Below are positions 2,879 to 18,589 of a DNA stretch of 64,000 bases, in pieces. The DNA lies in assembly GCF_965216145.1 (NCBI RefSeq), contig NZ_OZ244149.1, positions 417,011-481,010 of the forward strand, given 5' to 3'. Position numbers and translations under genes: made by a program. The notes beneath the pieces were generated by a model. That model saw nothing but the letters and a program-made list of their open reading frames with translations, did no database searches and was not told where the DNA came from. Within the stretch, counting starts at the first letter, position 1. Every line of letters starts with the position of its first letter. The stretch is from Candidatus Palauibacter sp. Its GTDB lineage: Bacteria > Gemmatimonadota > Gemmatimonadetes > Palauibacterales > Palauibacteraceae.

Positions 2879-3889
2879 TTGAGCGGCACCGATCGCCAGT
2901 GTCCGCTGTGTCTTCGGCAATGCGGAGGCGGCGGAGGTGAGTGGGGATATTGGTTTGATTGCGAAACGTGCGGGAAGTTCAGCGTCGAGCAGTACCTCAG
3001 GGCCAGCGACGCGACCAATGGTCTGACGGTTACACAGCGGTCCTGGCTGTCGCACTTCGCGCGGACGAAGTGGGACCTCCACGAGTCGTTGCCGAAGAGG
3101 GTTCCCGGCACCACTCCGGAGCCGACCCCTGCCGTGATCGACCGCAAGCTCGTGGAACAAGCCCGAAACGGAGACTTGGCCGTAACCCGTGCGCAGCAGG
3201 CGGCGAACGCGATCAGGCACATTGGAGATCGAGTCCTCGAGGGAGGAGGCGCCATCACTCTCCGATATGGCTCACCCAAGTTCGCAGCGGTCATCGGTGC
3301 TCCGAACTCCGGTAGTGCGCGGGAACTCATGGGCGAACTCGCCGCGGCGGACAGGGTCAAATGGAATGAACCGCCATACTTCCAAGGCGGCGAGGAACCG
3401 TATGCCAGTGCGGACCTTACGCTCACAGGCTGGGAGCAGTACGAGGAGATGAAGCACGGTTCGCTCGATGGAGGGTACGGATTCTTCGCGTGGCAATTCG
3501 GCGGCACAAGAACCGAGCCCATTTTCAAGGATGTCCTCAAGCCGGTCTTCAGGAAGCGGGGCTATCCGCTACGGGATATGAAGGATCTCTCCCAGCCCGG
3601 CCTGATCGACAACATCATGCAGGACCGGATCCGGGGCGCCTCGTTCGTCATCGTCGACCTGACCGACGGCAACCGCGGGTGCTACTGGGAGGGGGGCTTT
3701 GCACAGGCTCTCGAGAAGCCGGTCGTGTACATCTGCCATCAGGAAGCGTTCCACGACCCGGCCACGAAGCCGCACTTCGACACGAACCATTACACGGTCA
3801 TCTTCTGGGGTGCCGACAAGCCGAACGAGGAATTCGTCGAGGAGCTTATCGCGACGCTGCGGCGGCACCCCGGCGGACTGGATCTTTGA
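2879..3889 (+). CDS. Zinc-ribbon protein with C-terminal nucleoside 2-deoxyribosyltransferase-like (SLOG superfamily) domain
   Basis: N-terminal four-Cys ribbon (CPLC ... CETC). C-terminal FVIVDLTDGNRGCYWEGGFAQALEKPVVYICHQ matches the D..G...E.G.A.a..KPv signature of nucleoside deoxyribosyltransferase-like domains. Alternative (TTG) start per ORF track; 80 nt downstream of the preceding gene on the same strand. Confidence 0.6.
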   Translation: MSGTDRQCPLCLRQCGGGGGEWGYWFDCETCGKFSVEQYLRASDATNGLTVTQRSWLSHFARTKWDLHESLPKRVPGTTPEPTPAVIDRKLVEQARNGDLAVTRAQQAANAIRHIGDRVLEGGGAITLRYGSPKFAAVIGAPNSGSARELMGELAAADRVKWNEPPYFQGGEEPYASADLTLTGWEQYEEMKHGSLDGGYGFFAWQFGGTRTEPIFKDVLKPVFRKRGYPLRDMKDLSQPGLIDNIMQDRIRGASFVIVDLTDGNRGCYWEGGFAQALEKPVVYICHQEAFHDPATKPHFDTNHYTVIFWGADKPNEEFVEELIATLRRHPGGLDL

Positions 3890-4194
3890 CCGGGTTCATC
3901 GCCATGGACTGGTTGAGCGTCGGTCAGCGGACGGATGTGCTCGACTGCGGCGGCAACCGGTACGCGCAATCGACCGGCCAAGTGCGGTTCAACGTGGGGG
4001 TGAAGGCGGACTCGGAAACGGTCACGCGGTAACGGTGAACGCGGCGCTGCGCCGGGAGGAGCTGCTGCGCCCGTTGAGCGCGCCGTGGCTGACGTGTTAC
4101 TCTACCGGTGTGCCGCAAGCGGAGATCGCGGAAGCAGCGGAAAGATGGGTCAATCTGCCGGGTGAACCGATGAACAGAGAAGGGAACGTCACAG

Positions 4195-4419
4195 ATGCGT
4201 AATCCACCAACATCTAGTTACGACATTGTTAGTGGTACATTCGATCTTTCTATCGACGGAAGCACCGTAACCGTAAAGGGCGATATCAGCAGTACCTACA
4301 ACACGGCCCTTATCCCCATAAATGTATCGTTCGATGTGGACAACAACCCTATGGACTATTCACTACGGGAGTTGGGCAAAATGGCCATCGTGCAGCACTT
4401 TCAAAAGAATGAGAGTTGA
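4195..4419 (+). CDS. Small hypothetical protein (74 aa) in an AT-rich patch
   Basis: ORF in a locally AT-rich segment that contrasts with the GC-rich surroundings; no recognisable motif. Could be non-coding. Confidence 0.3.
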   Translation: MRNPPTSSYDIVSGTFDLSIDGSTVTVKGDISSTYNTALIPINVSFDVDNNPMDYSLRELGKMAIVQHFQKNES

Positions 4420-4517
4420 GGTCAATTGAGGTCCAAGCTCCACTAGTTGAAGACAACCACTTACATAGGGTGTGTAAATTGGCGACCCGTCCAAAAAGCC
4501 GGGAACACCTCAGGATT

Positions 4518-5354
4518 CTATCCGAGGCTGTCGCGCAGGATTCTCTCCAATTCGTCAACTACGGCCCGCATGTGCAGCTTGTCTTCCGGGCGCTCTTCAC
4601 TATTGCGTATCGTATCGACGACATTTGACCATGTCTTATGGATTTCGGGCAATCTGAGCATCTTGGGATCCGCATTTAGTGCTACGTGTAGCAGCTCTTC
4701 CGCGCGAGTAAGGTCGAAAGCGTCATACGCATTAATTTTTTTGATACAGGCAAGATGCTCATTGGGGAAGTCCAACATCTGATAAAGATTATCAATATCT
4801 CTTGACAGATAAGCAGTATCCTGAAGAGCGCTTACAACTTGCTCTGCGATGTCCGACATGTTTGACTGGTGTCGGATCGCGATGGCCTCCTCAACGGCGT
4901 TGGCCAAATTGTCCCGAATCCACTCGTACCGTTCTTCGCTACTTCGCCCGGGAGGATCGTAACACTTCACCACACGGGAAAGATCTTCATGTGCGCCGAC
5001 AGCGATCCTGAACGGATTCGGACCCCTTGCGGCCACATGTCCATCCCGGTTTCGCAGGCCGTGGATGCGAATCCCGACGACGCCCATCCCATCCTTCCAG
5101 GACTTCTCAATCTCGTATTCGACCCATGGCCGTCCGGTGGTGTGGGTTCCCACCAAGACCACCGTGCAGGAGCGTGCTCGCATCTGGTCGACGATCCACG
5201 CCCTGATGGCCGGAGCACCCTGACGCGTCAATTCCTCCCAACTGGTATCCGTCGCCGGTCTGTTTCCCTCAACCACGCCGATGTTCCGAACCGTCGCCGC
5301 TCGCCAGCGGTCGGTTTCGTAGTTAAAGCTGTAGAACACCCTTCGCTTTAGCAT
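4518..5354 (-). CDS. TIR-like domain protein (DUF1863 / ThsB-like) with AT-rich C-terminal helical extension
   Basis: Start set at the internal ATG (MLKRRVFYSFNYETDRW...), residue 94 of ORF 4518..5633. N-terminal VFYSFNYETD ... CTVVLVGTHTTGRPWVEYEIEKSW ... GVVGIRIHGL fits the flavodoxin-like TIR/DUF1863 pattern. Confidence 0.65.
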   Translation of the reverse strand: MLKRRVFYSFNYETDRWRAATVRNIGVVEGNRPATDTSWEELTRQGAPAIRAWIVDQMRARSCTVVLVGTHTTGRPWVEYEIEKSWKDGMGVVGIRIHGLRNRDGHVAARGPNPFRIAVGAHEDLSRVVKCYDPPGRSSEERYEWIRDNLANAVEEAIAIRHQSNMSDIAEQVVSALQDTAYLSRDIDNLYQMLDFPNEHLACIKKINAYDAFDLTRAEELLHVALNADPKMLRLPEIHKTWSNVVDTIRNSEERPEDKLHMRAVVDELERILRDSLG

Positions 5355-5454
5355 GCCGTTCCTCCACGGCTCCCATCCACTATCACCGGCGACCGCGGGG
5401 GCGACATCGGTCGGAGGAGCGAGAACGAGATAAGATGCAACTCGGACGCCAGTT

Positions 5455-8190
5455 CTATCGCGCGGGCCGGACGCCTCCCTTGCGGCGCAGACCGTAGCCG
5501 ATCCGGAAGACATCCGGGACATCGACGCGGTCATCCCGGAGGCGACGGAAGATACCCAGGGACTCCAAAGCCTCGCGGAGTTCATCGTGGTCATAATCCA
5601 TATGCGGCAGCGGGAGCCGCCACCCGTCTCCACTACCCGCCTGGGCCAGCTGCTTCAAGACGCGTCGCTCACGCCACAGATGAACGACTTCCTCGAAATC
5701 ACACGGAACAACCCGTCCGGAGAGCGGTTGCATCAGCACCTGCACCCATGGATAATCCTCCTGTAGCTCCCGAACCCGCGTCGTGGACGCCTCCCGCACA
5801 CCGTGCTTGATGCTCTGGTAGTGAAGGGCGTAGCCATGATCCGGATGGCGTTCATGAGAATCTTCCGCCGCTGAGCGCAACGCCGTGAGAAACGAGCGCG
5901 GACTGACCTTGCCCCCGGCGTCGGCGAGGTGGTTTGGGATCCATGTGTACGGGTATCCGCGTCTCCGATCAGTGCCCATCCACGGGCCCGCGAATTCGTG
6001 GAACTTGTCGCGCTGGGCCCCCTCGTCGCGGTCGAGCGGATACGGCACTTCGAAGCGCGGTGCCGTATCGTCATCAGTCGTGGACCAGTGTCCGTCCTGC
6101 AAGCGCGGACGGACGAGGTCACCTCGTGGACCGTTGGCCAGGGAATGCCAAAGCAGGCCGTAGAGATCCCGGCGCGGCCAGCTGAGATCGACAGCCGACG
6201 ACAACACTTTCGAAGCGTCCGGAAAGTCCGTGATCCGCCGCTCGTCCACCTGATCAGTTCTCAGGAAGATCTTCGCGCGCAAGCGGCGATACGGACGCAT
6301 GTCGAGGGCGTGCTCCAGCAATCCTCGAATCAGCTCGGACGCAGTCTGCCAGTCGGAGGCGGCGCGATCCAGAGCGTCAAATAGCACGACGGAATACACA
6401 CCCCTTGAGTCCAGTTCGACATCGATAGTCCGCAGGAGGTCGAGGACGACACTCGGGTCATCGAGGACGTACCTCGCGCGTTCAAGCCACGTATCGAACT
6501 GTCGTATCGGATGGTCGGCACCCGCCACCGCGCACGCATGCACGGTTCGCCAGATGATCCGGGGCTCCACGTTGTTGGCGATTAGTCGACAAAGATCGTC
6601 CCTCACCGGATAATCGCCCGGCACATTGGAGACACCGAATCCCGACTCGACGACTGAATCTTCGTTCAAAGGAAAGCCCCGCACCTCTCGCCCCAGCGAG
6701 CGACGAACCTCGGGACTCTGCAGGGCGCGCCACCAGAATGTCTTGCCTGAGCCGCGCATTCCAGTGACGAGCATCGTGTCGGGGTGCATGGCCTTTCGAT
6801 GCGAAGGCGGGATGTACACGGCCGACGACGGGACGGGCTCGCCGTAGCTCGCCGGATCGGGCAGCTCGCTGAACGCGAGGCGCACGGTCTCGGCCCGGGT
6901 CGGGTCGCCGACTGGCTCGGGGCTTCGGTAGAGCAGGTCGAACCGTCGGAGGAACTCCCTGTACGCTTGGGCCACCGTCGTTCGCTCCAGCTTCCGGAGA
7001 GAAATTCCGGCCGCGAACCCTCGTGTCCAATGGATCACCAGCGGATCATGCTGCCCCTCCTCGGACGACAGGTCAGCCGACACCCCCTCATCCGTTTCCC
7101 CGAGATCCACGATCTCGTCCTGCAGGCGATCCCGAAGGAGGATTCGTGCGTTTTCCCGGAACCGTTCGACGTACCGCTCGGTATCCGTCTCGGGCGTCAA
7201 GGCGGAGACGATCGACAGGCGTTCGCGTATCCGGGATGCCATGTTTGTGCGCGCCCAATGATCGAACAGAATCCCGTAGTCCGTCCAATGGCTGTCGGAG
7301 TCGACGGCGAACAGCATCACCTCCGCGTCCAGATCCGTCACCGTTGCCGCCGCAATATCGTGGAGGCCGCTCCGGCTCTCGATGAGCACGACGGTCGGGC
7401 TGAACTCCGTTTCCAGGTTCACCACCAACCGCTTCAAGCGACTCGTCCAAGGATCGATCGCCGTATCCATGTACGTGCGCCCGAGCTTTGCGAGGTATTC
7501 CCCCGGCTTCCTGCCGTGCGCCGGCGCCACCAGCACACGTCCCGGCAAGTCATGAGCCCAAGAGGGCTTCCCCGTCATCCGGCTCACGACATGATCTCCC
7601 TGTCCGACCAATTCTTCGACGAACCAGTCCGTGACGCCGAACTCCGGCTCGGCCGGGGGTTCCAACATGGCCGACGCCAGCCCGGGCGACTCTAGGTCCA
7701 AATCGATGACAAGCACATCCTCCGCCTGCCGGGCGAGGTGCCACGCCAACACCGCCGCCGTCGTGCTGCGCCCCACCCCACCCTTCACCGAGTATAGGAC
7801 GTAGCGGGCCGGGTGGTGTTCGCTCGACGGGTCCGGGACTGTCCACCATTCTTGGCCGACGACGAGCCGGTCGGCCCAATGAACGCCGGGCCTGATCAAC
7901 TGCGCCGTGTCGCCCAGCGTCTCCAGCAACGCGGGATCTACGAAGAGCACTGTCTTCTGCGGCAGGTGTCCGTGGGCCGCGAGCGCATCCGCCAAGCGAC
8001 TCGCCAAGCGGCTCAGCACTTCGCCGAGTTCGCGATCATCCTGGGCTGCTTCCGATACCGATATGCCGACCTTGCCGAAGAGGTTGCGCACGAGGTATAG
8101 CGGCGGTGCGTCGGCTGGGATCTCCATCCCTTCCAGCACCTCCGATACGAGCCGCCGCACTTGGTCGAACGGAACGAAGGTGTCGCTCAT
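5455..8190 (-). CDS. Dual-NTPase protein: ParA/MinD-like domain with deviant Walker A (KGGVGRST) plus a second P-loop NTPase (GMRGSGKT)
   Basis: Start at internal ATG (MSDTFVPF...), which overlaps the stop of the upstream 140-aa gene (ATGA). YSVKGGVGRSTTAAV followed by DVLVIDLDLESPG is ParA/Soj-like; LVTGMRGSGKTFWWRAL with later VVLFDALD gives a second Walker A/B pair. Confidence 0.7.
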   Translation of the reverse strand: MSDTFVPFDQVRRLVSEVLEGMEIPADAPPLYLVRNLFGKVGISVSEAAQDDRELGEVLSRLASRLADALAAHGHLPQKTVLFVDPALLETLGDTAQLIRPGVHWADRLVVGQEWWTVPDPSSEHHPARYVLYSVKGGVGRSTTAAVLAWHLARQAEDVLVIDLDLESPGLASAMLEPPAEPEFGVTDWFVEELVGQGDHVVSRMTGKPSWAHDLPGRVLVAPAHGRKPGEYLAKLGRTYMDTAIDPWTSRLKRLVVNLETEFSPTVVLIESRSGLHDIAAATVTDLDAEVMLFAVDSDSHWTDYGILFDHWARTNMASRIRERLSIVSALTPETDTERYVERFRENARILLRDRLQDEIVDLGETDEGVSADLSSEEGQHDPLVIHWTRGFAAGISLRKLERTTVAQAYREFLRRFDLLYRSPEPVGDPTRAETVRLAFSELPDPASYGEPVPSSAVYIPPSHRKAMHPDTMLVTGMRGSGKTFWWRALQSPEVRRSLGREVRGFPLNEDSVVESGFGVSNVPGDYPVRDDLCRLIANNVEPRIIWRTVHACAVAGADHPIRQFDTWLERARYVLDDPSVVLDLLRTIDVELDSRGVYSVVLFDALDRAASDWQTASELIRGLLEHALDMRPYRRLRAKIFLRTDQVDERRITDFPDASKVLSSAVDLSWPRRDLYGLLWHSLANGPRGDLVRPRLQDGHWSTTDDDTAPRFEVPYPLDRDEGAQRDKFHEFAGPWMGTDRRRGYPYTWIPNHLADAGGKVSPRSFLTALRSAAEDSHERHPDHGYALHYQSIKHGVREASTTRVRELQEDYPWVQVLMQPLSGRVVPCDFEEVVHLWRERRVLKQLAQAGSGDGWRLPLPHMDYDHDELREALESLGIFRRLRDDRVDVPDVFRIGYGLRRKGGVRPAR

Positions 8191-8609
8191 GGCGTCCCTC
8201 CCTGCGCAGCCCATTGAACCATCAGCCGAACCTCTGACGCCGCCCGACGATGCGGCTCGACGTAGGCCTCATCGAAGTTCCCCCGGCTGGCGTAGCGGTT
8301 ATGGTGCGACCAATCGGAGAACGGTTCCCCGCCCGGAAGCTGCGCAAGCAGCGCGCCCGCGCCTCGCTGCGCCGCGAACTGGTCGAACACGTTCCACAGT
8401 TCCTCGATATGTACGCGATGCGCCCGCTCTTCCGGCGCGCCGTCGGGGCGAACGAGCATACCAAGATTCTGCATGAGCGACTTCAGGCCGCACTCGGCGC
8501 TGAACCCGTACAACTGATCCGCGTTGGCCCAGCGACGCGCGGCCGACAGGTACTCGGCATCTTCCCAGTGTCGCTCGTGCGCGTCCTCGAAGTCCGCCGC
8601 GTAGATCAT
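8187..8609 (-). CDS. Hypothetical protein (140 aa), translationally coupled to the dual-NTPase gene
   Basis: Clean ORF starting MIYAADFEDAHERH; stop overlaps the downstream start. N-terminus resembles the methyltransferase C-terminal tail and the 65-aa orphan ORF. Contains RAHRVH, a weak R-x4-H HEPN-like hint only. Confidence 0.55.
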   Translation of the reverse strand: MIYAADFEDAHERHWEDAEYLSAARRWANADQLYGFSAECGLKSLMQNLGMLVRPDGAPEERAHRVHIEELWNVFDQFAAQRGAGALLAQLPGGEPFSDWSHHNRYASRGNFDEAYVEPHRRAASEVRLMVQWAAQGGTP

Positions 8610-8803
8610 GCTAGCTCATGGCCCCGCGCAGCGCGCGTCGTGTTCAGATCCATCAGACGAGCGAGCACCTCATTGCGCACGTCGCCCGGCGGTCGGGTCA
8701 ATAGGGTGTAAGTGCCATGAGGCGGCGACCTTCCGTGGCGCTCATGAGCGTCCGTGAAGTCAGCCGGATGGATCACGAGTCCCCGGCAAGAATAGATCGG
8801 CAA
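8606..8803 (-). pseudogene. Orphan 65-codon ORF: probable remnant of a gene 3' end, homologous to the methyltransferase C-terminus
   Basis: Translation ...HPADFTDAHERHGRSPPHGTYTLLTRPPGDVRNEVLARLMDLN aligns with the methyltransferase C-terminus ...HETDEDERRRARAPHRYRWPNEVRDEVLARLMALN. Alternative start, no upstream context; lies in the 418-nt gap after the truncated ATPase. Confidence 0.3.
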
Positions 8804-9027
8804 TCCGCATGTTCACCCTCCATGGTCGGCTCGTCGCCGTCTGCGGTGCGGTTTCGGCGGTCATGCATGATACTGTGGCGCTCCAAGTTAGACGCCGGAG
8901 CGGTTTCTTGCTCCACCGCAGCCTCGCACGGCTACTGCGGGACATCGCAAGAGGTCGTGTCGATCGACCCTCTTCCGAGAGCTCCGCGGCGGAACTCCGT
9001 CCGGTGAGCGTCCGTTTCCTAAGGGGG

Positions 9028-9822
9028 TCACGGCTGTTCTTGAGGGGGTGTAGCGCTTTCGGCAGCACAGGCGATGGCGTCAAGCTTCTCGCTCACTTCC
9101 GGATCGACATCCGCAGGCGGCATGTGGCCGACGAGCCGGTAGAAGTTGCCCTTCGGCATGAGGTTTGGCAGGCCCAGCTTCGAGAAGTACGCGGTGAGCA
9201 GCGGCTTCAGGAACTCCGTGCTCACCTTCAGGTCGGCGCCCCACGGCGACGGCTTCCCGAGACGCCGCACGTTCACGGCGCCCTCGTCGAGCCGGGTCTC
9301 GGCCGCAGCCAGCCCCGACATCGGCGGCAGGAAGGCCATCCTCACGCTCCCCGCCTCGTCGGGGACGGGCATGCGGTCGGGAACGCGATCCTCCGTCAAC
9401 CGCAGCGGACGGCAGTACACCGACTCGTCGTTCGCGTAATCGAACTCGAGCCCGCACGTCCAGGCACGCCCGCGGGTCACCCCCTCGACGATGATGTCGA
9501 TGCGGATGTTCCTCGTTTGCTGTTTACCGCCTACGTACCGCACATCTCGCACCCGAAGATCCCGCCACGCGAGCTTAACGCTCGGAATTGGAATGGACAC
9601 GAGATCGCGACGGTTGATGGTCACGCCCGGGCGTTTCTCGGGCGTTCTCTTGCCGGCCCGCTTGGCGTTCCACTGGGTCAGCCCCGTGTGCCACAGGGCG
9701 AGCGCCTGCATGGCGGAGGTCTTGCCCGAATTGTTGGGTCCGATGAAGACGACCGGGCTCCCGAGCTCGACTTCGACGTCTTCGAAGCGCTTGAATCTTC
9801 GAATGGTCAGCTTTGTCAGCAT
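9028..9822 (-). CDS. AAA ATPase N-terminal fragment (AAA_15/AAA_21-like, as in GajA/PtuA/OLD-family ATPases), probably truncated
   Basis: Start at internal ATG (MLTKLTIRRFKRFEDVEVELGSPVVFIGPNNSGKTSAMQAL). Walker A present, but no Walker B, signature or H-loop before the stop at 264 aa. Confidence 0.5.
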   Translation of the reverse strand: MLTKLTIRRFKRFEDVEVELGSPVVFIGPNNSGKTSAMQALALWHTGLTQWNAKRAGKRTPEKRPGVTINRRDLVSIPIPSVKLAWRDLRVRDVRYVGGKQQTRNIRIDIIVEGVTRGRAWTCGLEFDYANDESVYCRPLRLTEDRVPDRMPVPDEAGSVRMAFLPPMSGLAAAETRLDEGAVNVRRLGKPSPWGADLKVSTEFLKPLLTAYFSKLGLPNLMPKGNFYRLVGHMPPADVDPEVSEKLDAIACAAESATPPQEQP

Positions 9823-9901
9823 ACGACGCCACCACTTCCCGTCCGGTCGCTTGCATGCGGCTTCAGCCAGCAGAGCAGCGGAACCGCGCATGGCGCACTG
9901 C

Positions 9902-11272
9902 TCATCTGACCCCCTGGAACTCCGCATCCACTCGTTCCAAGTCACGTCTCAGGTCATTCGCCGCTTGGCGCGCAAGGCGGAGCCGTTCCTTCTGATTCCG
10001 GCACCGTTCGCCCAGTTCCGAATAGCATATGGACAGATTGAGAAGTGACGAGAACAGGCCTTGAGCTGCCGTGTCGACCGCCTTGAGATCTTCCGGCGAA
10101 AAAGGCAGATCGCTTCCGCGCTCACCAAGTTCTTGGCCTTGCCCCGCCAGCTCGCGTAGACGCAGATCGCACTCGTTCGGCGTGCTCTTACCCGCTTCGA
10201 GATCGGAGAGGACGCGGATCACATTTTGCACGAGAGGACGGCTGGCTGAAACAAGTGTCTTGATCTCCCTTAGCATGGGCCCCTTCTTGCCCGTATGCTG
10301 TCGATGGAATTCTCTCCAGTGCCCGTACTGGTGATTCCAAAGAATCGAGACACCATCCCAAACTTCGTCACCGTCCCACGGCATCGGACGACAGGATGGA
10401 TCGAGGCCCGGATCAACCCACTGAGTTCGCGCAATCCAGTTCGCGTGACGAACGTCGTCGTGTCCGCCCGCCACATAGAGGTATACGACGTCTGCTCTAT
10501 GCCCGGACCAAAGCGCCTCAAGTTGAGGACTTCGGTGGTATTCCTCTTCGCGAATCTCCGGAAGAGCCCGACTGATCACGTCCCTAACGCCATCGCGCCC
10601 CGCGTGGCGATCAACTACCAGCACCGCTGAATAACGCTTGGCACCCGCATGACTCACGTCCTCGAGCCGCACGATCTCGTACGGCAGGTCGCCCTTCACC
10701 GGCACTTCGAGGATTGCGTCGGGCGCACGACGCTGGCCACAGGCACACGTCCCGTCGTTACGGAACAGCTTCCCGTCCCGAGGGCAGATCTTCTCGTATG
10801 CGATGAGGAGCCGGGCGCAATCAACCGTATCGACGATGAGGTGTGGGACAGTCGCGTCGCTGGCCGTCTGCGCAAAGTCGCGTCGCGCATCATCCTGAAT
10901 GTCCCCTACGGCCATCAGCACTGCCAAACCGAGGTCCGGTATCGTTCGGAGCTTAGCGAACTGATGAGAAACGATTTTGCTCGTAACCTTCGGGAAGGAA
11001 GGACCCTTCAAGACGAAGCCGGCGGTAACCGGACGACCACGTAGGACGATCCGAGTCGTAACGATGTCGGCGATCTCCGTTGGACCGTGTGGCGTTTCGT
11101 TCGGGTCGAAGAGGATCTCACGAACTGCTGATTCCAGCGCACGTTCGTTCAACCGCCGAACCTCCGCGAGCACGTCGTCAGACACGCCTGTGGCTGGAAT
11201 CCGAACCACCTTGGCGAACTGATCGATTTCACCGAGCGCCACCAAACGGGCCCGGTTCACGCCGATCCCCAT
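9902..11272 (-). CDS. Hypothetical protein (456 aa) with Cys cluster and C-terminal coiled coil; candidate partner of the methyltransferase
   Basis: Start at internal ATG (MGIGVNRARL...), 29 nt after the methyltransferase stop. Contains CPRDGKLFRNDGTCACGQ and a charged C-terminal helical region. No confident family assignment. Confidence 0.5.
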   Translation of the reverse strand: MGIGVNRARLVALGEIDQFAKVVRIPATGVSDDVLAEVRRLNERALESAVREILFDPNETPHGPTEIADIVTTRIVLRGRPVTAGFVLKGPSFPKVTSKIVSHQFAKLRTIPDLGLAVLMAVGDIQDDARRDFAQTASDATVPHLIVDTVDCARLLIAYEKICPRDGKLFRNDGTCACGQRRAPDAILEVPVKGDLPYEIVRLEDVSHAGAKRYSAVLVVDRHAGRDGVRDVISRALPEIREEEYHRSPQLEALWSGHRADVVYLYVAGGHDDVRHANWIARTQWVDPGLDPSCRPMPWDGDEVWDGVSILWNHQYGHWREFHRQHTGKKGPMLREIKTLVSASRPLVQNVIRVLSDLEAGKSTPNECDLRLRELAGQGQELGERGSDLPFSPEDLKAVDTAAQGLFSSLLNLSICYSELGERCRNQKERLRLARQAANDLRRDLERVDAEFQGVR

Positions 11273-11303
11273 CCGGTCGTGAAAGACCTGTTCTGCCTTG
11301 TTC

Positions 11304-14300
11304 TCAAGTCGTTCCTCCCGCCGACAGGTGTTGCGTACCCTGCGCACGTTCGGAATTTAGAGCCATCAGGCGGGCCAACACCTCGTCCCGCACCTCGTTG
11401 GGCCAGCGATATCGATGGGGTGCCCTTGCACGGCGACGCTCATCTTCGTCGGTCTCATGGTTGAGCAGGAACTCGCATCGGGTAGGGATGTCGGACCAGC
11501 CGTACGCATCGAGGACGACCCGATCGATGTCCGCGTGAAGCTCGCGGAGCCTCGATACCGCCGGATCCGTTTCGTTCCGGTCGTGGAACCGGTTGTACGT
11601 CTTGGTCAAGCCCTCCTGGTTGTGAAGCATGAGGTCGCCGCGAAACTCGTAGTATGCCTTGCCGACTCGCTCCCGGACGGGATCTGCATGCCAGTCTGGA
11701 GGAAACGGGAAAGTCTCAAAGCAGTCGGACGGCGTGTACCGCAGCCGTTCCTCAAGCGTCGACCCGAAAAAGCGTGCCCAAACCTCGTGAACGCGGGATT
11801 GAAGGACGCAAAACGCTGCGTAAGTGTCCATGGAAAAAATCACAAGAGTGTTGGCGAAAACCATTCGGGCTGGAAGAAACGCTAATGCCAGATGGGGCGT
11901 GGCACCGCAGTTGACGGCCAACACTCGATTCAAATCCGCGATGGTCGCGTAGAGTCCTGCAGCTTTTTCGGCGTGTTGCCACCAACGCTCTCGACGCACC
12001 TTACGGTTCTGTCGCTCACGGTCGGGCTTCACCTTTTCTTCTAGAATCTGCACTAACTCTGGCCATCGCTCGCGGCACTCGTCCTGCCGACGCTTGCCAA
12101 AGTTGATCACGTAGCGGTGATGCGCTTGCGCGAGGCTCGTGTTGACCTCCTGCCCGCCAATGTAGGGGAAGATCACTTGCGCATTGTGCGGATCCTCAGC
12201 GATAAGCCTCCGCATTTCGGCCAAGGGCGTGGCCACTCCCTTGGTGTCGGTGTCGTCGAACGTGAAGCCCATGCCGAGGACGATGCTCCCCTGAAAGCTC
12301 TGCTCCGCGTTTTCCTTGAGCCGCGGCGGGTCGTCGTTCCCACCTGCGTGGAACAGAAATGCCGTGATCCGTTCGACGGCGGCGTCATCGAGCGATTTCT
12401 GGTGCCCGAACCTCCCTTTCACGATGTGCAGGACGCTGACCACTACAGCCGCAACGCCCGGCCACTTGAAGCGGGTTTGCGCGCGGTAGATCTCTCCGCC
12501 GCGCGTGCAGATCCAGCGGAGGCCCGTGGACCGGGTGTCGCCTTGCGAAATCGTGTTCGTCGCGATGAGGCCCAGCGTGCCTTGTTTGCGCAGCAGGTTG
12601 AACGACCGCCGGAAGAAGTGGGCGACCAAATCCGCGTTGCCGTGGCTCCGCGCGTGCAGTTCCTTGAGCCACAGCGGGTAGCCGGGGACGTTCGAGGCCG
12701 CGACGGTGTTCTTGCCCGCGAACGGCGGGTTCCCGACGAAGGCGTCAAAGCCCGGGTTCCGGCGCTCGAACACCTCCGGGAACTCGATCTCCCAGTGGAA
12801 CGGGGCGAACGGCGTGGTCTCCTTCCGTTTCGCGGCGAGGCGCCCCCCGTGGGAGAGAACGGCGAGGCGTTCCGTATCGCTGTCGCCCAGAAGAGACGCG
12901 AAGTGCTGCCGCCGGCGGGCCTCCCGCTGCCTCGCTCTTGTCTCGAGGAAGAACGCCTCCAGCGCCAGATCGCCGAAGAACCGGACGTCCGTCAGCGCCG
13001 CGTTCGCGTCGTCCAGCTTGTCTCGAAGTTCCCGCTGGTCGATGTCGGGCGGCGCGTCCCTGATCTCCCCGCGTAGCGCGACCACGCGGTCCACTGCGTC
13101 CGAGACCACGGTGTTCAGCTCCAGCTGGGGCGGCAGGGATCCCCTCTTCCAGGTGAAGGCGGCGATCTGCGGCTTCGCCAGGCCGACCAGGGAGTCGCCG
13201 TCGCGGAGGGCGTGGTCCACGAAGGTGAGCGGTTCGTCCTTGGCCAGGGTGGCCAGCCACAACGACATCTTGGCGAGGTCCACCGCCATGGGGTTGCGGT
13301 CCACGCCGTAGAGGCAGCGATGCGCCACGAGACGGCGGGCGAACAGATCTTCGTCCTCCCCGGACGGGAGAGCGGGGAGCGTTCCGTGCATCCGCCATGC
13401 GGTGACGAGATGGTCGCCCAGTTGGCGGCAGGCCTCGACGAGGAAGGCGCCCGAACCCATGGCGGGATCGCAGACCTTGAGATCGAGGATCTGCTCGGCG
13501 CGGGGCGGGCCGCCGTCTCCGAGGCGTTCGAGGATCGGTTCCAGCGCTTGCCGCACGATCGGTTCGGTGAGTTCGCGCGGCGTGTAGTGCGATCCCGAGC
13601 GCCGCCGCGCCTCGCTGGGCTGGAGGATCATCGCGCCGCGCGGCACCAGATCCGGTGTGGCCGCCGCGTCGATGACGTTGTGCAGGGAGGCGTGCGCGTC
13701 GGCGAGCGTTTGCGCCGCGCGGAGGGGCTTGCTCACGGTGGGCGTCAGCTTTCGGCCCGTCCGGTCAAGAATCCATTTCGGGCGATCGACGGGCGCAACA
13801 TCCAAGAGCAGTTCCAGATCCACCGTTGTCGAGGCTCCGAGCTTCTTCTGCGCCTTGACGGCGGCGGACCGGCCCGTCGCGGTCTCCAGCCGGAACCCCA
13901 TCATCGTCTCGTACACGGAGCCGATCTGCTCCACGTCGAGCGCGCGGTACGAGATCCGTTCGCCGTCGAGGACCAGCAGCTTGTCGAGCACCCGGTAGAT
14001 CGTTCCGTCCGGCACCAACGGAACGTCGATCCCCTCGTGCACCTGCGGTGCGCCGCTCCCGCGCCATCCCTCGAGGAACGGGAACCGACTCGGGCTGAAC
14101 AGTTCTCCGCGCCGCGGCGGGAGTCTCATTCCGTCGCACTCCGCCCCGTCGTGGACCATGCGAAACAGCACGACGAGCTGTGCCCACGCCCCGTAGCGCT
14201 GGTCCATCGTGTCCGGGTTGAGCGCCGCGTCCTCCCTCAGCCTCTCGTACAGTCCGCCCAGCGAATAGGAGCCGAGGAAGGTCGCGTCGTCCGACAACAT

Positions 14301-15359
14301 CCCGCGCTCTTCGGCGTAGAGCACGAACACGAGGCGCAGTACGACGGTGAGGAGCGCGCGGTACACGTTGTCCGGATCCTCGTCCAGCGCCTCGCGCAGA
14401 AGCTTACCGTGCGACGCGTCGTGCGCCGCCTGGAAGCCACGCAACAACTCGTGCAGGGCGTGCAGCACCTGCTCGGCCAGCCGCTCGCTGACCACGTTCT
14501 GGTACTTGCGGCTGCTCTCCAGAAGGGCCGCCAGCCGTTGCTCCCGCGGCAGCGCCAGCAGCCGCTTCTCGGAGAGGAGGAGGCGTAGCGCCGCACACAG
14601 CGGGCGGCCCGCCGTGGAGAGCATGTCGCCGACCCGGAAGTCCATCCACCCGGAACTCTCGCCCCGCGGCGCGGACATGAGCCGGATCACGCGTCCGTTG
14701 AAGAGCAGCCCGGCGGGGACCCCGGTGCGGCGCAGCAGCCGTTCCATGCGCCCGTGGGGCGAGGCCTCGAGCCGGCCCGCACCCGTGGCGACGCGATCGA
14801 GGTCCTCCCCGGGGTCGAGGACGGTGACGAGCAGTTGCCACGGCACGCCTCCCTCCGCCGGATCCCGTTCGCGCACGGCGAGGCGGGGCCGCAGCACATC
14901 CCGGTATTCCTGGAGGCTGACCTCCAATTCGGGAGGAATGGGCGAATCGCCTATGCCCGCGTAGCCGCTGGGCGAGAAGCGCCAGCCCAGGACGGATCTC
15001 GCAAACGCTTCGAAGTCGGGCAGGTAGGGTTCGGGTTCTGCCGAGGTGCCGAACGCGCGTTCCCGGACGCACTCGTTCAGAAGCCGCTGTCCCCCGATGT
15101 CCCGCCGGTCAAGCACCGCGCCCGCCTGGACGAGCGCGTGTGCGGACACCACGAGCCCGGTCGGCTGGATGAACCCCAGCCACTCGAGGTGGTCCCGGAC
15201 GTAGGGCGAGGGCTTGGCCACGCGGCTCAGCCGGTCTCGGGCCAGAGATACACGAGTCCGACCGGCTCCACGCGACGCGCCCGCACCCGATAGAAGTCCT
15301 CGATCCGCGCCGGCTCGTCGCGCAGGTCGCGCTCGAACTGCTTGAGCCGGTCCCGCCAC
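11304..15359 (-). CDS. Gamma-class N6-adenine DNA methyltransferase (PglX / type IIG / Eco57I-like), ~1350 aa
   Basis: Motif order X-I-IV: SGSHYTP, then DPAMGSGAFL (SAM-binding motif I), then FVGNPPFAGKN (catalytic NPPF). Long N- and C-terminal extensions. ORF-track start is an alternative codon overlapping the helicase 3' end; the true start may be about 45 codons downstream. Confidence 0.8.
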   Translation of the reverse strand: MAGPAQAVRARPARRAGADRGLLSGAGASRGAGRTRVSLARDRLSRVAKPSPYVRDHLEWLGFIQPTGLVVSAHALVQAGAVLDRRDIGGQRLLNECVRERAFGTSAEPEPYLPDFEAFARSVLGWRFSPSGYAGIGDSPIPPELEVSLQEYRDVLRPRLAVRERDPAEGGVPWQLLVTVLDPGEDLDRVATGAGRLEASPHGRMERLLRRTGVPAGLLFNGRVIRLMSAPRGESSGWMDFRVGDMLSTAGRPLCAALRLLLSEKRLLALPREQRLAALLESSRKYQNVVSERLAEQVLHALHELLRGFQAAHDASHGKLLREALDEDPDNVYRALLTVVLRLVFVLYAEERGMLSDDATFLGSYSLGGLYERLREDAALNPDTMDQRYGAWAQLVVLFRMVHDGAECDGMRLPPRRGELFSPSRFPFLEGWRGSGAPQVHEGIDVPLVPDGTIYRVLDKLLVLDGERISYRALDVEQIGSVYETMMGFRLETATGRSAAVKAQKKLGASTTVDLELLLDVAPVDRPKWILDRTGRKLTPTVSKPLRAAQTLADAHASLHNVIDAAATPDLVPRGAMILQPSEARRRSGSHYTPRELTEPIVRQALEPILERLGDGGPPRAEQILDLKVCDPAMGSGAFLVEACRQLGDHLVTAWRMHGTLPALPSGEDEDLFARRLVAHRCLYGVDRNPMAVDLAKMSLWLATLAKDEPLTFVDHALRDGDSLVGLAKPQIAAFTWKRGSLPPQLELNTVVSDAVDRVVALRGEIRDAPPDIDQRELRDKLDDANAALTDVRFFGDLALEAFFLETRARQREARRRQHFASLLGDSDTERLAVLSHGGRLAAKRKETTPFAPFHWEIEFPEVFERRNPGFDAFVGNPPFAGKNTVAASNVPGYPLWLKELHARSHGNADLVAHFFRRSFNLLRKQGTLGLIATNTISQGDTRSTGLRWICTRGGEIYRAQTRFKWPGVAAVVVSVLHIVKGRFGHQKSLDDAAVERITAFLFHAGGNDDPPRLKENAEQSFQGSIVLGMGFTFDDTDTKGVATPLAEMRRLIAEDPHNAQVIFPYIGGQEVNTSLAQAHHRYVINFGKRRQDECRERWPELVQILEEKVKPDRERQNRKVRRERWWQHAEKAAGLYATIADLNRVLAVNCGATPHLALAFLPARMVFANTLVIFSMDTYAAFCVLQSRVHEVWARFFGSTLEERLRYTPSDCFETFPFPPDWHADPVRERVGKAYYEFRGDLMLHNQEGLTKTYNRFHDRNETDPAVSRLRELHADIDRVVLDAYGWSDIPTRCEFLLNHETDEDERRRARAPHRYRWPNEVRDEVLARLMALNSERAQGTQHLSAGGTT

Positions 15360-18300
15360 GAGCGGATGTTGGCCCGAAGCTGCTTCCGGTCCTCGTCGTC
15401 GAGGGCGAGCGTGAGCTGGGGTTCCTTCTCGTGCCGCTGCAGCTCCTTCTCGACGCGATCCCGCTGGCGAGTCAGGGTCTCGCGCAGCTCCCCCGCCTCC
15501 CGCTCACCGCGCTCGCTGAGACGCTCGGCCGCCTTCTTCGCCAACTCCTCCGCTCTGGGTTCCAACTGGGGTCTCAAGTCGCCGATGTCTGCGGGGGCCG
15601 CGGCGAGCAGCCGTTCCCGCACGGTCTCGCTCGGCTGCGACACCCGTTCCGAGTCGAGCACCCGGTCGAGCAGGGCCAGCGTCTTCCGCTCCGCGTCCGC
15701 CCGGTATCGCTCCAGCGGGCCCTGGCGGCGTTCGGGGTCCGTCCAGCGGGCCGTCACCGTAACGATCTCCTCGTGCAGGCGCTCCGCGCGTCGGCCGTAT
15801 AGCGACAGGCGCCCCAGCAGCACGACCCGGGGGATGGAGTCGGCCACCTGCGCGAGACAGGCCCGCGACAGGTCGTGGTGCACGAAGCCCTGCGCCCGGA
15901 ACCGGGCCAAGAGGCGCTGCGCGACCCGCTGTTCAAGGTGCAGGTGCACGACATCGTCCGTCAGTTCGCCCGGATCCTCGAACACGACCGGGCGGACGGG
16001 CGCCTCCCGCCGCCACTCCACGATCTTCTGATCCCGCTTCATCGGTGCGCGCAGCGTGTCGAGGGTCGACGCCCACGAGGGGTCCGCCGCCACCCGTCCG
16101 TCGAGGGCCGGGAACGACCACACCGCCCGCCCGTTCTCGTCGCGCGCCTCCCTCAGCGGCGCCGCGTTCTGAAGCCCCAGCGAGCACGACAGCGCCCTGC
16201 GGAATGCCTCAGGACCGAACCGCACCCACTCGCGCGACTTCTCGAGCAGGTTCCGGCAGCGCTCGATCTGATCCTCAAGATCGCTTTGCCGCTCGCGCGC
16301 CGACTCGAACTCGTCCGCCACGCGGCGCTTGCGGTCCGCCTCCAGATCCATCCCCGCCAGCGTCTCGGCGAGCCCCGTGGCATCACGGCGCCGAATCCCC
16401 TGCTTGAGCCGCTTCTCGATGTCCTCCTCGATCACCTTCGAGAGGCTGCCCAGCTCCCGGCGGATGGTCTCGGTCTTCCTCACCAGCACCTCGAGCACCC
16501 GGTCTTCGTGACGCTGGGGCAGGGTGAAGTAGTGGCAGCGCACTTCGTCCGCGGGCTGGAGCTTGCGGTCGATCCGCCCGTTGCGCTGCTCGATCCGGCC
16601 GGGGTTCCAGGGCAGGTCGAAGTGGAATAGGTCGGTGCAGTGCGCCTGGAAGTTCAGCCCCTCGCGCGCCGCATCCGTCGCCAGCAGGATGCGCAACGGA
16701 TCCCGCGACGGAGGCGTGTTGAAGCGGCGCTGGATTTCCTTGCGCCGCGCGCCGCTCGTGGCCCCCTCGATCACGGCAATCCGCTCCTCCGCCCTGTCCG
16801 TTCCCGCGATCGCGTGCGACAGCGCGTCCCTGAGGAACCGCTTGGTGCCCTCCACATGCTCGGTGAAGATCAGCACCCGGCGCTCGTTCCAGCGGGGCGT
16901 CCCCACTGCAGGCATTCCAAAGGGCGGAAGTTCGGGACACAGGTTCTCCCGGATCCAATCGAGGAGCGCGCGCGTCTTCGCGTCGGGGTGCGTGCGCGCA
17001 GAGTCCGCGACCTCCTGCATGCGGTCGAGCAGGCGCTGCTCCTTCCGCCACAAGTCCTCGATCCGGGCATCGCGCTTCAACGCCGACTCGGCCTCCCGGT
17101 TGGCGGCCTCGATCTGTGCTTCCTCCGCAGCTTCCTCAGCACCGTCGAGGATCTCGTCGTCCGCCCCCGGTGTCGTCAGGAAATCCTCCGCCAGCGCCCG
17201 GCGCGCCGCTCCGCCGCGAGCGTGCCGCTCGTCGCTTCCCGCGTTGCGGCCGGTCCCGGCCTCCCATTGCCTCTTCACCGTCTTCCGGTGCCGCGCGAGA
17301 CTGATGGCGAACGCCTCGATGGACGACAGCAGGCGCTGTTGAAGGCCGACGACGAGCAATCCCGCCGCCGCCCGCCCCCGGGCCGTCGCGTGGGCGAAGC
17401 GCTGGTCGCGCACGGAGCGGTATTCGTCCAGCAGCCTTGAGAGCACGAGTTCCGGCGCGTCCTCCGGCAGGTTGTCGATGACGACCGGTCTCACGTCCCG
17501 CTTGGGGAAGCCGCCCTGGATCTCGCGGATGTCTTCCTTGAGACGGCGGATCATCACGGCGTCGAGGTCCGTCTTCCCGCGCACCGTCACGCCTCGCGTG
17601 AAGCGGTGCGGGTCGAGCAGTTCCAACAGCGTGGAGAAGCTGTTCGAGTGCCCGTTGTGCGGCGTCGCCGACAGGAAGAGACGATGCTCGAAGCGGTAGC
17701 AGAGGTCGCGAATCGCGCGCGTGAACTTCGACTCGATGCCATACCGCCCGCCGTGGCTTGGGGCGGCGTGATGCGCCTCGTCCAGAATCAGCAGGCTTCC
17801 GGGCGACATCGTTCCGAGCCACTCCCGCATAGGATCCGCGTAGGCGGGATCGGCCAACAGCCGGTGCGAAACGAGGAACCGGCTGTGCGTCCGCCACGGA
17901 TTCACGCCGAAGCCGCGCTCGCGGCGCATCGTCGCCACGTAGTGCCGGTCCAGGATCTGGAACACGAGCCCGAACCGCTCCTCCATCTCCGCCTTCCACT
18001 GCTCCAGCACCGAGGGAGGCGCGGCCACAACGATGGTCTTCGCCTTTCGGCGCAGGAGAAGCTCGCGCGCGATCAGCCCGGCCTCGATCGTCTTGCCCAG
18101 ACCGGTGTCGTCCGCGATGAACAGGTTCACGCGCGGCAGGCGGAGGGCCTTCCTCAGCGGCTCCATCTGGTAGGCGTCTAGGGTGATCCCGGCCCGGAAC
18201 GGCGCCTGAAACAGCGACGGATCGGTCGCGGTCGTGCAGCTCCACCGCAACGTGTTGAGGAAGGCCGCGAAGTACTCCGGCGAGTCGAAGCCGCGCTCCG

Positions 18301-18589
18301 CCAAGTTCTCCCACGGCTCATCATCGAGGATGGCGCGGTCGAGCTCGTACTTCCAGAAGACTTCGAGTTCCTGCCCCTGCGCATCGTCATCCGCGCACGC
18401 CAGCCGGACCCGCGCGGACTCACTGGACTGTCGGCCCCCCGTCACCTCCTCCACCAGCCAGCGCCGTGTACGTACCCGCACCATCTCCCCCACCTCCGGA
18501 TCCCGGCTTGGCAAGCCACGGGAAAGCCGAGGGTCACCGTGGGCGTTAGCTGCGTCATGGGAACCGAGCGGTTCCAGGTCAGGCGTCAT
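15227..18589 (-). CDS. SF2 helicase, SNF2/DEAH-type (DISARM DrmD-like / BREX helicase-like), ~1120 aa
   Basis: Helicase motifs I LFIADDTGLGKT, II LLILDEAHH, III LFLSATPHNG, VI QRNGRIDRKLQ; long C-terminal coiled-coil region. Confidence 0.8.
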   Translation of the reverse strand: MTPDLEPLGSHDAANAHGDPRLSRGLPSRDPEVGEMVRVRTRRWLVEEVTGGRQSSESARVRLACADDDAQGQELEVFWKYELDRAILDDEPWENLAERGFDSPEYFAAFLNTLRWSCTTATDPSLFQAPFRAGITLDAYQMEPLRKALRLPRVNLFIADDTGLGKTIEAGLIARELLLRRKAKTIVVAAPPSVLEQWKAEMEERFGLVFQILDRHYVATMRRERGFGVNPWRTHSRFLVSHRLLADPAYADPMREWLGTMSPGSLLILDEAHHAAPSHGGRYGIESKFTRAIRDLCYRFEHRLFLSATPHNGHSNSFSTLLELLDPHRFTRGVTVRGKTDLDAVMIRRLKEDIREIQGGFPKRDVRPVVIDNLPEDAPELVLSRLLDEYRSVRDQRFAHATARGRAAAGLLVVGLQQRLLSSIEAFAISLARHRKTVKRQWEAGTGRNAGSDERHARGGAARRALAEDFLTTPGADDEILDGAEEAAEEAQIEAANREAESALKRDARIEDLWRKEQRLLDRMQEVADSARTHPDAKTRALLDWIRENLCPELPPFGMPAVGTPRWNERRVLIFTEHVEGTKRFLRDALSHAIAGTDRAEERIAVIEGATSGARRKEIQRRFNTPPSRDPLRILLATDAAREGLNFQAHCTDLFHFDLPWNPGRIEQRNGRIDRKLQPADEVRCHYFTLPQRHEDRVLEVLVRKTETIRRELGSLSKVIEEDIEKRLKQGIRRRDATGLAETLAGMDLEADRKRRVADEFESARERQSDLEDQIERCRNLLEKSREWVRFGPEAFRRALSCSLGLQNAAPLREARDENGRAVWSFPALDGRVAADPSWASTLDTLRAPMKRDQKIVEWRREAPVRPVVFEDPGELTDDVVHLHLEQRVAQRLLARFRAQGFVHHDLSRACLAQVADSIPRVVLLGRLSLYGRRAERLHEEIVTVTARWTDPERRQGPLERYRADAERKTLALLDRVLDSERVSQPSETVRERLLAAAPADIGDLRPQLEPRAEELAKKAAERLSERGEREAGELRETLTRQRDRVEKELQRHEKEPQLTLALDDEDRKQLRANIRSWRDRLKQFERDLRDEPARIEDFYRVRARRVEPVGLVYLWPETG

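Follow-up and report, generated by a model that had tools for sequence, protein, structure and literature searches.

Fused-gene variant of the candidate defence system PDC-M28 with a co-inherited TIR gene beside DISARM genes in Candidatus Palauibacter

Three co-directional genes, which we call A, B and C, run from 8609 to 4518 on the minus strand of a 64,000-nucleotide stretch of a Candidatus Palauibacter (Gemmatimonadota) chromosome (contig NZ_OZ244149.1, forward-strand positions 417,011 to 481,010), hereafter the window. Our reading is that the locus is the PADLOC candidate system PDC-M28 in a fused-gene form, to whose 3' end a co-inherited ThsB-family TIR gene has been added; the locus ends a row of genes (DrmD-DrmMI) of the defence island system associated with restriction-modification (DISARM) and would act through a mechanism switched by nucleoside triphosphatase (NTPase) domains. 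For this reading as a whole we would give a probability of roughly 0.5. The identity of the parts is nearly certain, and it is likely that the whole, as a candidate, is an anti-phage system.

Protein A matches the PADLOC-DB v2 model PDC-M28A at E = 5e-48 (residues 4-138 on profile positions 2-136 of 138), the N-terminal half of B (residues 6-420) matches PDC-M28B at E = 3e-119 and its C-terminal half (residues 434-910) matches PDC-M28C at E = 9.6e-162, so that all three protein families of PDC-M28 are present, in the same A>B>C order. Because A and both halves of B fall in these models the core is catalogued yet uncharacterised, and the locus is an architectural variant, with an M28B-M28C fusion and a captured, remodelled TIR, and not a categorically new module. 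An earlier note on this DNA, made from its letters, had proposed an undescribed module; the proposal stands only partly, given these matches and the existence in NCBIfam of a 'KGGVGR-motif variant AAA ATPase' model, and the PADLOC check that the note recommended, run on the proteins, returned PDC-M28A, PDC-M28B, PDC-M28C and ThsB1/PDC-M50B. What is new is the clade-specific, co-inherited link of the fused M28 ATPase with a TIR gene and, in the subclade of the window, an unusual C-terminal domain on that TIR. The parts of the locus are as follows.

8187..8609, minus strand: gene A, 140 aa, predicted HEPN-fold protein, PADLOC PDC-M28A
5455..8190, minus strand: gene B, 911 aa, PDC-M28B and PDC-M28C fused; its start overlaps the stop of A (ATGA)
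7816..8190, minus strand: B residues 1-125, a conserved N-terminal region that falls within the PADLOC M28B model
7252..7812, minus strand: B residues 127-313, ParA/MinD-like (SIMIBI) domain, KGGVGR variant
5461..6891, minus strand: B residues 434-910, AAA+ ATPase resembling ORC/Cdc6 and STAND proteins, followed by a helical C-terminal region (PDC-M28C, matching NCBIfam Sll1717 in part)
5355..5454, minus strand: spacer between B and C, 100 nt
4518..5354, minus strand: gene C, 278 aa, ThsB-family TIR protein with an extra C-terminal domain
4866..5348, minus strand: C residues 3-163, TIR domain
4521..4856, minus strand: C residues 167-278, soluble helical C-terminal domain, GC-poor and very rare
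9902..18589, minus strand: upstream context, a 481-aa gene, then DISARM DrmMI (11304..15359) and DrmD (15227..18589), co-directional

Judged by sequence comparison, A, B and C are real genes and not chance open reading frames (ORFs) of a GC-rich genome, because their relatives in the protein database are numerous (246 for A, 74 scored for B and 2336 for C) and about 75 loci of other species show the A-B-C core in synteny. Much of what the earlier note had described is borne out. The ORF coordinates confirm the co-directional arrangement, with the ATG of B sharing bases with the TGA stop of A in GCCATGAGC and with C starting 100 nt past the stop of B, a GGAGG Shine-Dalgarno sequence lying 8 nt upstream of its ATG. 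The motifs of B are found at residues 136-143 (KGGVGRST), 159-170 (VLVIDLDLESPG), 477-484 (GMRGSGKT) and 601-608 (VVLFDALD), and the domain calls of a deviant Walker A of ParA/MinD type, a second P-loop and a ThsB-like TIR (Pfam ThsB_TIR PF08937, E = 5.7e-24) stand, as does that of a defence-rich setting, DISARM DrmMI and DrmD lying immediately upstream.

PDC-M28 was listed as a candidate defence system by Payne et al. 2024 (bioRxiv 10.1101/2024.01.29.577857), where it was discovered via "guilt-by-embedding" inside bacteriophage exclusion (BREX), DISARM or restriction-modification (RM) loci and defined as cassette CAS_00115, FAM_01482>>FAM_02546>>FAM_01036, with 121 RefSeq occurrences. The present locus shares the habit of residing within DISARM, BREX or RM loci in that it likewise sits at DISARM, and it is the embedding of M28 in DISARM loci that led to its listing. 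It differs from PDC-M28 as defined, which is a set of three separate genes: here, as in the main fused-gene clade described below, M28B and M28C form a single polypeptide, and a TIR gene follows. The available text of the preprint assigns no mechanism to PDC-M28, and the HEPN and STAND-like fold calls given below come from the present analysis. A literature search gave no paper for PDC-M28, PDC-M50 or Sll1717, and for KGGVGR it returned only an unrelated lectin review.

Protein B is a ParA/MinD-like domain, with the P-loop lysine changed to arginine (KGGVGR), joined to an AAA+ ATPase that resembles origin recognition complex (ORC) and STAND proteins and has intact Walker A and B motifs. Residues 127-313 match NCBIfam NF047398, 'KGGVGR-motif variant AAA ATPase', at 2.1e-46 and 158.7 bits (cut-off 90). 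The signature lysine K136 is invariant in the B family and the place of the canonical P-loop lysine is held by Arg141, at least 90% conserved; KGGVGRST therefore lacks one of the two lysines, signature and P-loop, that are both present in the ParA/MinD motif KGGxxK[ST]. Pfam gives short ParA/CbiA/AAA_31 matches around this P-loop and weak AAA_16/AAA_22 matches at the second one, and residues 1-125 have no Pfam or PDB sequence match.

Could B then be a housekeeping partition or cell-division ATPase of ParA/MinD type, an assignment against which the earlier note had wanted its proposal tried? Its Walker A region does resemble ParA, Soj, MinD and Mrp and is the one part that matches PDB chains of ParA, MinD or Mrp, but the likeness is limited to about 40-60 residues around the P-loop. 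The NCBIfam equivalog models for ParA, MinD and RepA score 15-32 bits where their cut-offs are 180-508, in matches that span about 35-45 residues, the BcsQ model is also far below its cut-off, and the P-loop lysine is an arginine. Moreover the ParA-like domain has a STAND-like AAA+ ATPase and a HEPN protein as its fused or coupled partners, no ParB, MinE or MinC neighbour accompanies B in flanks that are variable and hold many defence and mobile-element genes, and the phyletic spread of M28 is patchy and island-like. We consider a housekeeping role effectively refuted. A phage origin of B was also considered and rejected: tblastn gave no match among 50,697 phage records, and PHROGs gave only generic ParA P-loop matches.

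In the second NTPase domain G477, G480, G482 and K483 of GMRGSGKT and D605 and D608 of VVLFDALD are invariant, which is the STAND or ORC-Cdc6-like combination of a GxxGxGK[ST] Walker A with an acidic Walker B, and the predicted structure of the AAA+ part contains the corresponding module of nucleotide-binding, helical and winged-helix domains. Residues 597-885 give a sub-threshold match to the NCBIfam 'P-loop ATPase, Sll1717 family' model. Roughly the last 200 residues are helical apart from short strands close to the end, and Pfam recognises no repeat family in B. Since its best matches are archaeal Arch_ATPase-type AAA+ proteins, BrxC or Cdc6, B is not a clear member of the STAND class, and it is unlike the STAND/Avs and TIR-NLR ATPases also in showing no TPR, WD40 or LRR sensor repeats to Pfam, in having its effector domains on separate proteins and in carrying an extra ParA-like domain. 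Few stretches of the family are as well conserved as the extreme C-terminus (residues ~890-911; 5455-5520, minus strand), with the pattern PDVFRxGYGLxRxGGVRP: no variation occurs at P892, D893 and R903, and conservation is at least 90% at Y899, G900, G905, G906 and V907. The RefSeq name 'KAP family NTPase' of an M28C-type protein on a Thiodictyon plasmid is unsupported by Pfam.

The earlier note knew of no described system that pairs a TIR-like protein with a ParA-like dual-NTPase. A computational precedent does exist: MinD/ParA-like SIMIBI domains that are predicted to be inactive have been reported in conflict systems, including on AP-ATPase (STAND) proteins, and TIR is used there too (Kaur, Burroughs, Iyer, Aravind 2020, eLife; PMC7159879, in the sections that treat these systems). 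The arginine of the KGGVGR domain in place of the P-loop lysine agrees with those predicted-inactive domains, and the combination with a STAND ATPase and a TIR is likewise shared. The systems covered in these sections differ from ours in being VMAP-ternary or peptide-processing systems, mainly of multicellular bacteria, and no HEPN partner is described for them there.

Protein A is, on its predicted structure, a HEPN-fold protein. A sequence-profile search of the PDB with A returned nothing meaningful, and a fold search was required, which identified the four-helix up-down bundle of HEPN proteins. Ten residues are invariant in the A family, namely D17, N29, D31, E39, C40, K43, H67, W100, R105 and Y106. 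The canonical Rx4-6H motif does not occur at its usual place, before or in the last long helix, and this weighs against the reading given at the outset: the invariant R105 is followed by Y106 and has no histidine at +5 to +7, and the conserved H67 and H120 stand at non-canonical spacings. Ribonuclease (RNase) activity of A is uncertain for this reason, and we would call it plausible, not assured. Members of the AbiV family have been reported to vary at the Rx4-6H motif too. Compared with AbiV and with minimal HEPN proteins such as the HEPN-MNT toxins, A is without the canonical motif and has no evident MNT or RNA antitoxin, and its invariant R105-Y106, H67, E39 and K43 mark a distinct subfamily. 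The NCBI and UniRef name of A, 'SAM-dependent methyltransferase', is likely a propagated misannotation, given a predicted fold that is HEPN and the lack of any methyltransferase family match.

A scan of 100,044 species-representative genomes with the B alignment gave 78 loci in at least 11 phyla, and 82 loci were compared for core order (numbered L001, L002 and so on, next to that of the window). A lies directly upstream of the ATPase genes in 77 of these 82, and about 75 have the A-B-C core, which is spread over Gemmatimonadota, Acidobacteriota, Bacteroidota, Bacillota, Pseudomonadota, Chloroflexota, Planctomycetota, Nitrospirota, Spirochaetota, Verrucomicrobiota and Myxococcota. Most loci encode M28B and M28C in two genes that overlap, and around such split-gene loci an all-against-all BLAST clustering of ORFs up to 3.5 kb on either side revealed no conserved fourth gene. 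The biggest ORF clusters around the loci, in seven loci each, are the TIR and DISARM DrmA.

Homologues also occur on 25 plasmids, conjugative IncF plasmids of Enterobacter among them, and the plasmid copies, two on conjugative or mobilisable Enterobacter plasmids included, stand alone. One split-gene cassette of a cultured host is that of Enterobacter bugandensis pSurvcare220 (NZ_CP039454.1, 137389-140719). It might be argued from this that M28 is a toxin-antitoxin-like addiction module, in which a HEPN toxin restrained by the ATPases stabilises mobile elements and acts against phage at most secondarily. HEPN proteins are indeed common toxins (HEPN-MNT, AbiV), some of the plasmids are conjugative, with M28 near integrases and other toxin-antitoxin pairs, and transposases flank M28 in L004 and L091. 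Most copies are chromosomal, however, and the module is repeatedly embedded in DISARM operons; large NTPase sensors typify infection-sensing systems and not simple toxin-antitoxin pairs; and the two roles, addiction and abortive infection, are compatible. We regard an addiction module as improbable.

Protein C is, by its sequence, a ThsB-type TIR protein that conserves the glutamate at the catalytic position and carries a rare soluble C-terminal domain. It matches PADLOC ThsB1 at 1.2e-58 and PDC-M50B at 4.3e-55, in both cases over residues 3-163 only. At least 90% of 120 homologues keep the motif W77-x3-E81-I82, in which E81 stands at what we take to be the TIR/ThsB catalytic position. Membership of the ThsB family and retention of this glutamate are shared with Thoeris, whereas the upstream partners here are a HEPN protein and two NTPase domains; no match to ThsA, SIR2, SLOG or Macro was found in any neighbour scanned between 4 and 18589.

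The C-terminal domain of C comprises 112 residues, has no hydrophobic segment and has a GC content of 0.48 against 0.60 in the TIR part of the gene. An exhaustive HMMER search of 1.84 billion representative proteins turned it up in four representative clusters only: two are long forms of M28-linked TIRs, one is a stand-alone protein of 119 aa and in one the domain lies N-terminal in a GmrSD_N/DUF262 protein (L088, 8001-9410) whose gene adjoins that of an AAA_15/DUF3696 ATPase. On every checkable contig with a TIR that carries this domain M28 is adjacent. These occurrences suggest a rare accessory domain of defence effectors. The possibility that it is a fused remnant of M50A, the membrane protein introduced below, was discarded (hhalign 0.2%; no hydrophobic segment against three in M50A).

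The fused B genes form one main clade, and the TIR next to M28 is confined to it. A co-directional TIR gene follows 17-450 nt downstream in eight of the eleven main-clade loci that can be judged, namely that of the window, L001, L002, L004, L006, L007, L085 and L091; the sequence of L008 ends too early. At least seven further database clusters of fused B appear to share contigs with close TIR matches, which is no more than suggestive. The identities of B between pairs of loci correlate with those of the TIR domain (r = 0.81, 28 pairs), and this co-divergence indicates that the two were inherited together. In the L091 genome one 5.9-Mb contig carries two diverged copies of the fused M28 ATPase, which share 54% and 51% identity with B of the window; one of them is flanked by IS66 and IS605/TnpB elements.

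The source of the TIR appears to be PDC-M50, a second PADLOC candidate that consists of a small membrane protein, M50A, and a ThsB-like TIR, M50B (bioRxiv 10.1101/2024.01.29.577857). In L004, L006, L007 and L085 a protein of about 140 aa with three hydrophobic segments, which matches PDC-M50A at 1e-40 to 3e-42, is encoded between B and a short TIR of 165-170 aa, so that these loci carry the full M50A and M50B after the fused M28 gene. L091 retains the TIR without M50A. The subclade of the window (the window itself, L001, L002 and the contig of P0006) also lacks M50A, and there the TIR carries the 112-residue C-terminal domain. In the window tblastn with four M50A proteins gave a best E of 0.6, and the gap between B and C is only 100 nt. 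Although the TIR domain of C matches PDC-M50B, the locus thus departs from PDC-M50 in having no M50A and in a soluble C-terminal domain that is missing from M50B. Because M50A and the TIR follow B in four fused loci and the same pair stands alone in L083, the sequences point to a capture of the PDC-M50 cassette by the fused clade; the subclade of the window would then have lost the membrane partner and gained the C-terminal domain.

Is the TIR functionally coupled to M28 or does it merely reside beside it? Coupling has in our view about even odds, if anything slightly less: the persistence of the TIR after the loss of M50A, and the occurrence of the form with the C-terminal domain exclusively next to M28, argue that the TIR was rewired to the ATPase. 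The alternative is that of two independent neighbours, with a self-sufficient PDC-M28 and a TIR that is a separate, possibly decaying PDC-M50/Thoeris-like remnant sharing the defence island or DISARM slot. Such co-residence is argued for by the single origin of the association, the repeated losses of the TIR and the autonomy of both parent cassettes. The following points weigh against the reading that we prefer. Among the 61 split-gene loci whose sequence continues for 1 kb or more downstream, a profile hidden Markov model (HMM) built from 120 TIR homologues found none with a downstream TIR (a distant TIR lies 2 kb upstream in one locus, L014). The trio that the earlier note had taken for a unit is thus not what is conserved: the core is A, B and the M28C ATPase, and the full trio recurs in the main fused clade. 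Even in the main clade the TIR is missing from L005, L011 and L090, with A and B kept in L005 and L090, and it is missing from L089, an apparently independent fusion. The association represents essentially one acquisition, so that the loci are not independent observations. PDC-M50 is defined as a two-gene cassette of its own, CAS_00164, with 57 occurrences (bioRxiv 10.1101/2024.01.29.577857); in L083 its two genes stand among transposases without M28, and in L084 and L086 close relatives of the TIR lie beside TIR_2 and SLOG-like (LD_cluster3) genes, again without M28. B and C are separated by 100 nt with no gene overlap. A sigma-70 and intrinsic-terminator heuristic scan of 4100-9200 found no terminator, the spacer between B and C included, which would speak for linkage, and no minus-strand promoter-like site in the spacer, its lone promoter-like site being on the opposite strand; as the heuristic is not tuned to Gemmatimonadota it is uninformative here. 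The C-terminal domain of C was tried as an adaptor shared with A or B and rejected, with hhalign probabilities below 1%. Finally, the experiments of Payne et al. 2024 (bioRxiv 10.1101/2024.01.29.577857) concerned HEC systems only, and PDC-M28 and PDC-M50 remain candidates. Independence of the two neighbours in turn sits poorly with an adjacency and orientation that have survived about 45% divergence of B and hold across phyla, together with the correlated identities; with a TIR that outlives M50A in two sublineages, not easily accounted for if both genes are necessary to M50; and with a C-terminal-domain form found next to M28 only. We hold independent neighbours to be possible, on the doubtful side.

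With the fused PDC-M28 and its added TIR as the preferred reading, a mechanism can be proposed. The STAND-like AAA+ module would serve as a nucleotide-dependent sensor of infection and as a switch, oligomerising upon activation. The KGGVGR domain keeps the signature lysine, which ParA and MinD use to form ATP-sandwich dimers, and probably hydrolyses ATP poorly, and so may be a dimerisation or scaffold module and not a partition motor. Activation would release or activate the HEPN protein, likely an abortive-infection effector of the RNase type and the effector of the core; in the fused clade the TIR would be activated as well, leading to NAD+ cleavage or generation of a signal, and the C-terminal domain of C may couple the TIR to the M28 ATPase. 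An NTPase-switched abortive-infection system with the TIR as an added effector is what we infer as likely. A more specific version, tentative and on balance unlikely, leads us to speculate that the fused ATPase is one sensor-switch for two effectors that act in trans and differ in chemistry, one a ThsB-type TIR and the other a HEPN protein of non-canonical kind; such a system would amount to a 'split TIR-NLR' on a pseudo-ParA scaffold, with the TIR taken from PDC-M50 and rewired by a C-terminal docking domain.

The DISARM surroundings raise a further alternative, that M28, whether or not a TIR accompanies it, belongs to DISARM as an accessory sub-module and functions only together with Drm proteins. 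DrmMI and DrmD, genes of class 1 DISARM, each reach a PADLOC E of 0 in the window, and the M28 genes follow DrmD-DrmMI co-directionally. Nine related loci also place M28 in or next to DISARM. In six (L002, L006, L014, L034, L044 and L045) the module separates DrmMI from DrmA, in L011 it comes just before DrmD-DrmMI-DrmA, and in L004 and L020 it has DISARM genes on one side. Yet about 85% of the loci have no DISARM gene within 10 kb, plasmid copies occur without DISARM, and neither of the core genes DrmA and DrmB turned up in the window; tblastn with the DrmA of L002 gave no match in its 64 kb, and no DrmB/DUF1998 match was seen among the ORFs scanned, in a search that made no query aimed at DrmB. 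We think an obligate DISARM accessory very improbable. The DISARM locus looks incomplete, and DrmA and DrmB could lie past the left edge of the window; the region past 18.6 kb is housekeeping.

Several other genes around the module deserve mention. Beside DrmMI, a 481-aa ORF (9902-11347, minus strand) has no Pfam or PADLOC match and shares 77% identity with its positional counterpart in L002, against 63% for B of M28; it may be an unrecognised DISARM-associated or embedded gene. A 305-aa ORF (9028-9945, minus strand) resembles ABC-type defence ATPases (the N-termini of AAA_15, GajA, AriA and PtuA proteins) at residues ~42-104 only and is probably a truncated remnant; in L004 a similarly disrupted AAA_15/AAA_23 gene lies upstream of M28. 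The same locus holds a dense nested stack of candidates (9796-10566), in which the block of M28 and M50 is followed by PDC-M03B (HIRAN-like), a PIN/RHH toxin-antitoxin pair and DrmA.

On the other side of the TIR gene two plus-strand genes were considered as parts of the module and set aside. The first (2879-3889, 336 aa) encodes a protein whose N-terminus is Cys-rich and zinc-ribbon-like and whose C-terminal domain weakly resembles nucleoside-2-deoxyribosyltransferase and TIR domains (Pfam 0.004; PADLOC 'Effector TIR' 3e-4); it has no homologue in the related M28 loci and is convergent with the TIR gene. The second (4-2799, truncated at the edge of the window) shares 52% identity over 962 aa with a 1346-aa DUF8371 protein of L001, whose gene is likewise convergent downstream of the TIR gene and adjoins an AAA_14/DUF4143 ATPase gene; it recurs in L001 only, is convergent and may be another component of the island.

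From the point of view of the family, PDC-M28 is widespread (121 RefSeq cassettes, more than 75 species-level loci and 25 plasmids) but without a published mechanism, and our analysis supplies it with testable parts: a candidate effector with a predicted HEPN fold, a ParA/MinD-like domain with arginine for lysine and an ORC/STAND-like AAA+ switch. The locus is a good experimental target because homologues exist in cultured hosts and clear point mutants can be named. The fused clade represents a natural experiment in the merging of modules, in which a TIR cassette was captured once and co-diverged with its new neighbour, its membrane partner was lost twice and a near-unique domain was gained in one sublineage. 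If coupling is false, this is still a clean case of nested defence cassettes at a DISARM locus. If it is true, a ThsB-type TIR would have been re-used under a different sensor, and ParA-like pseudo-ATPases, so far the subject of computational notes only, would have a role in immunity.

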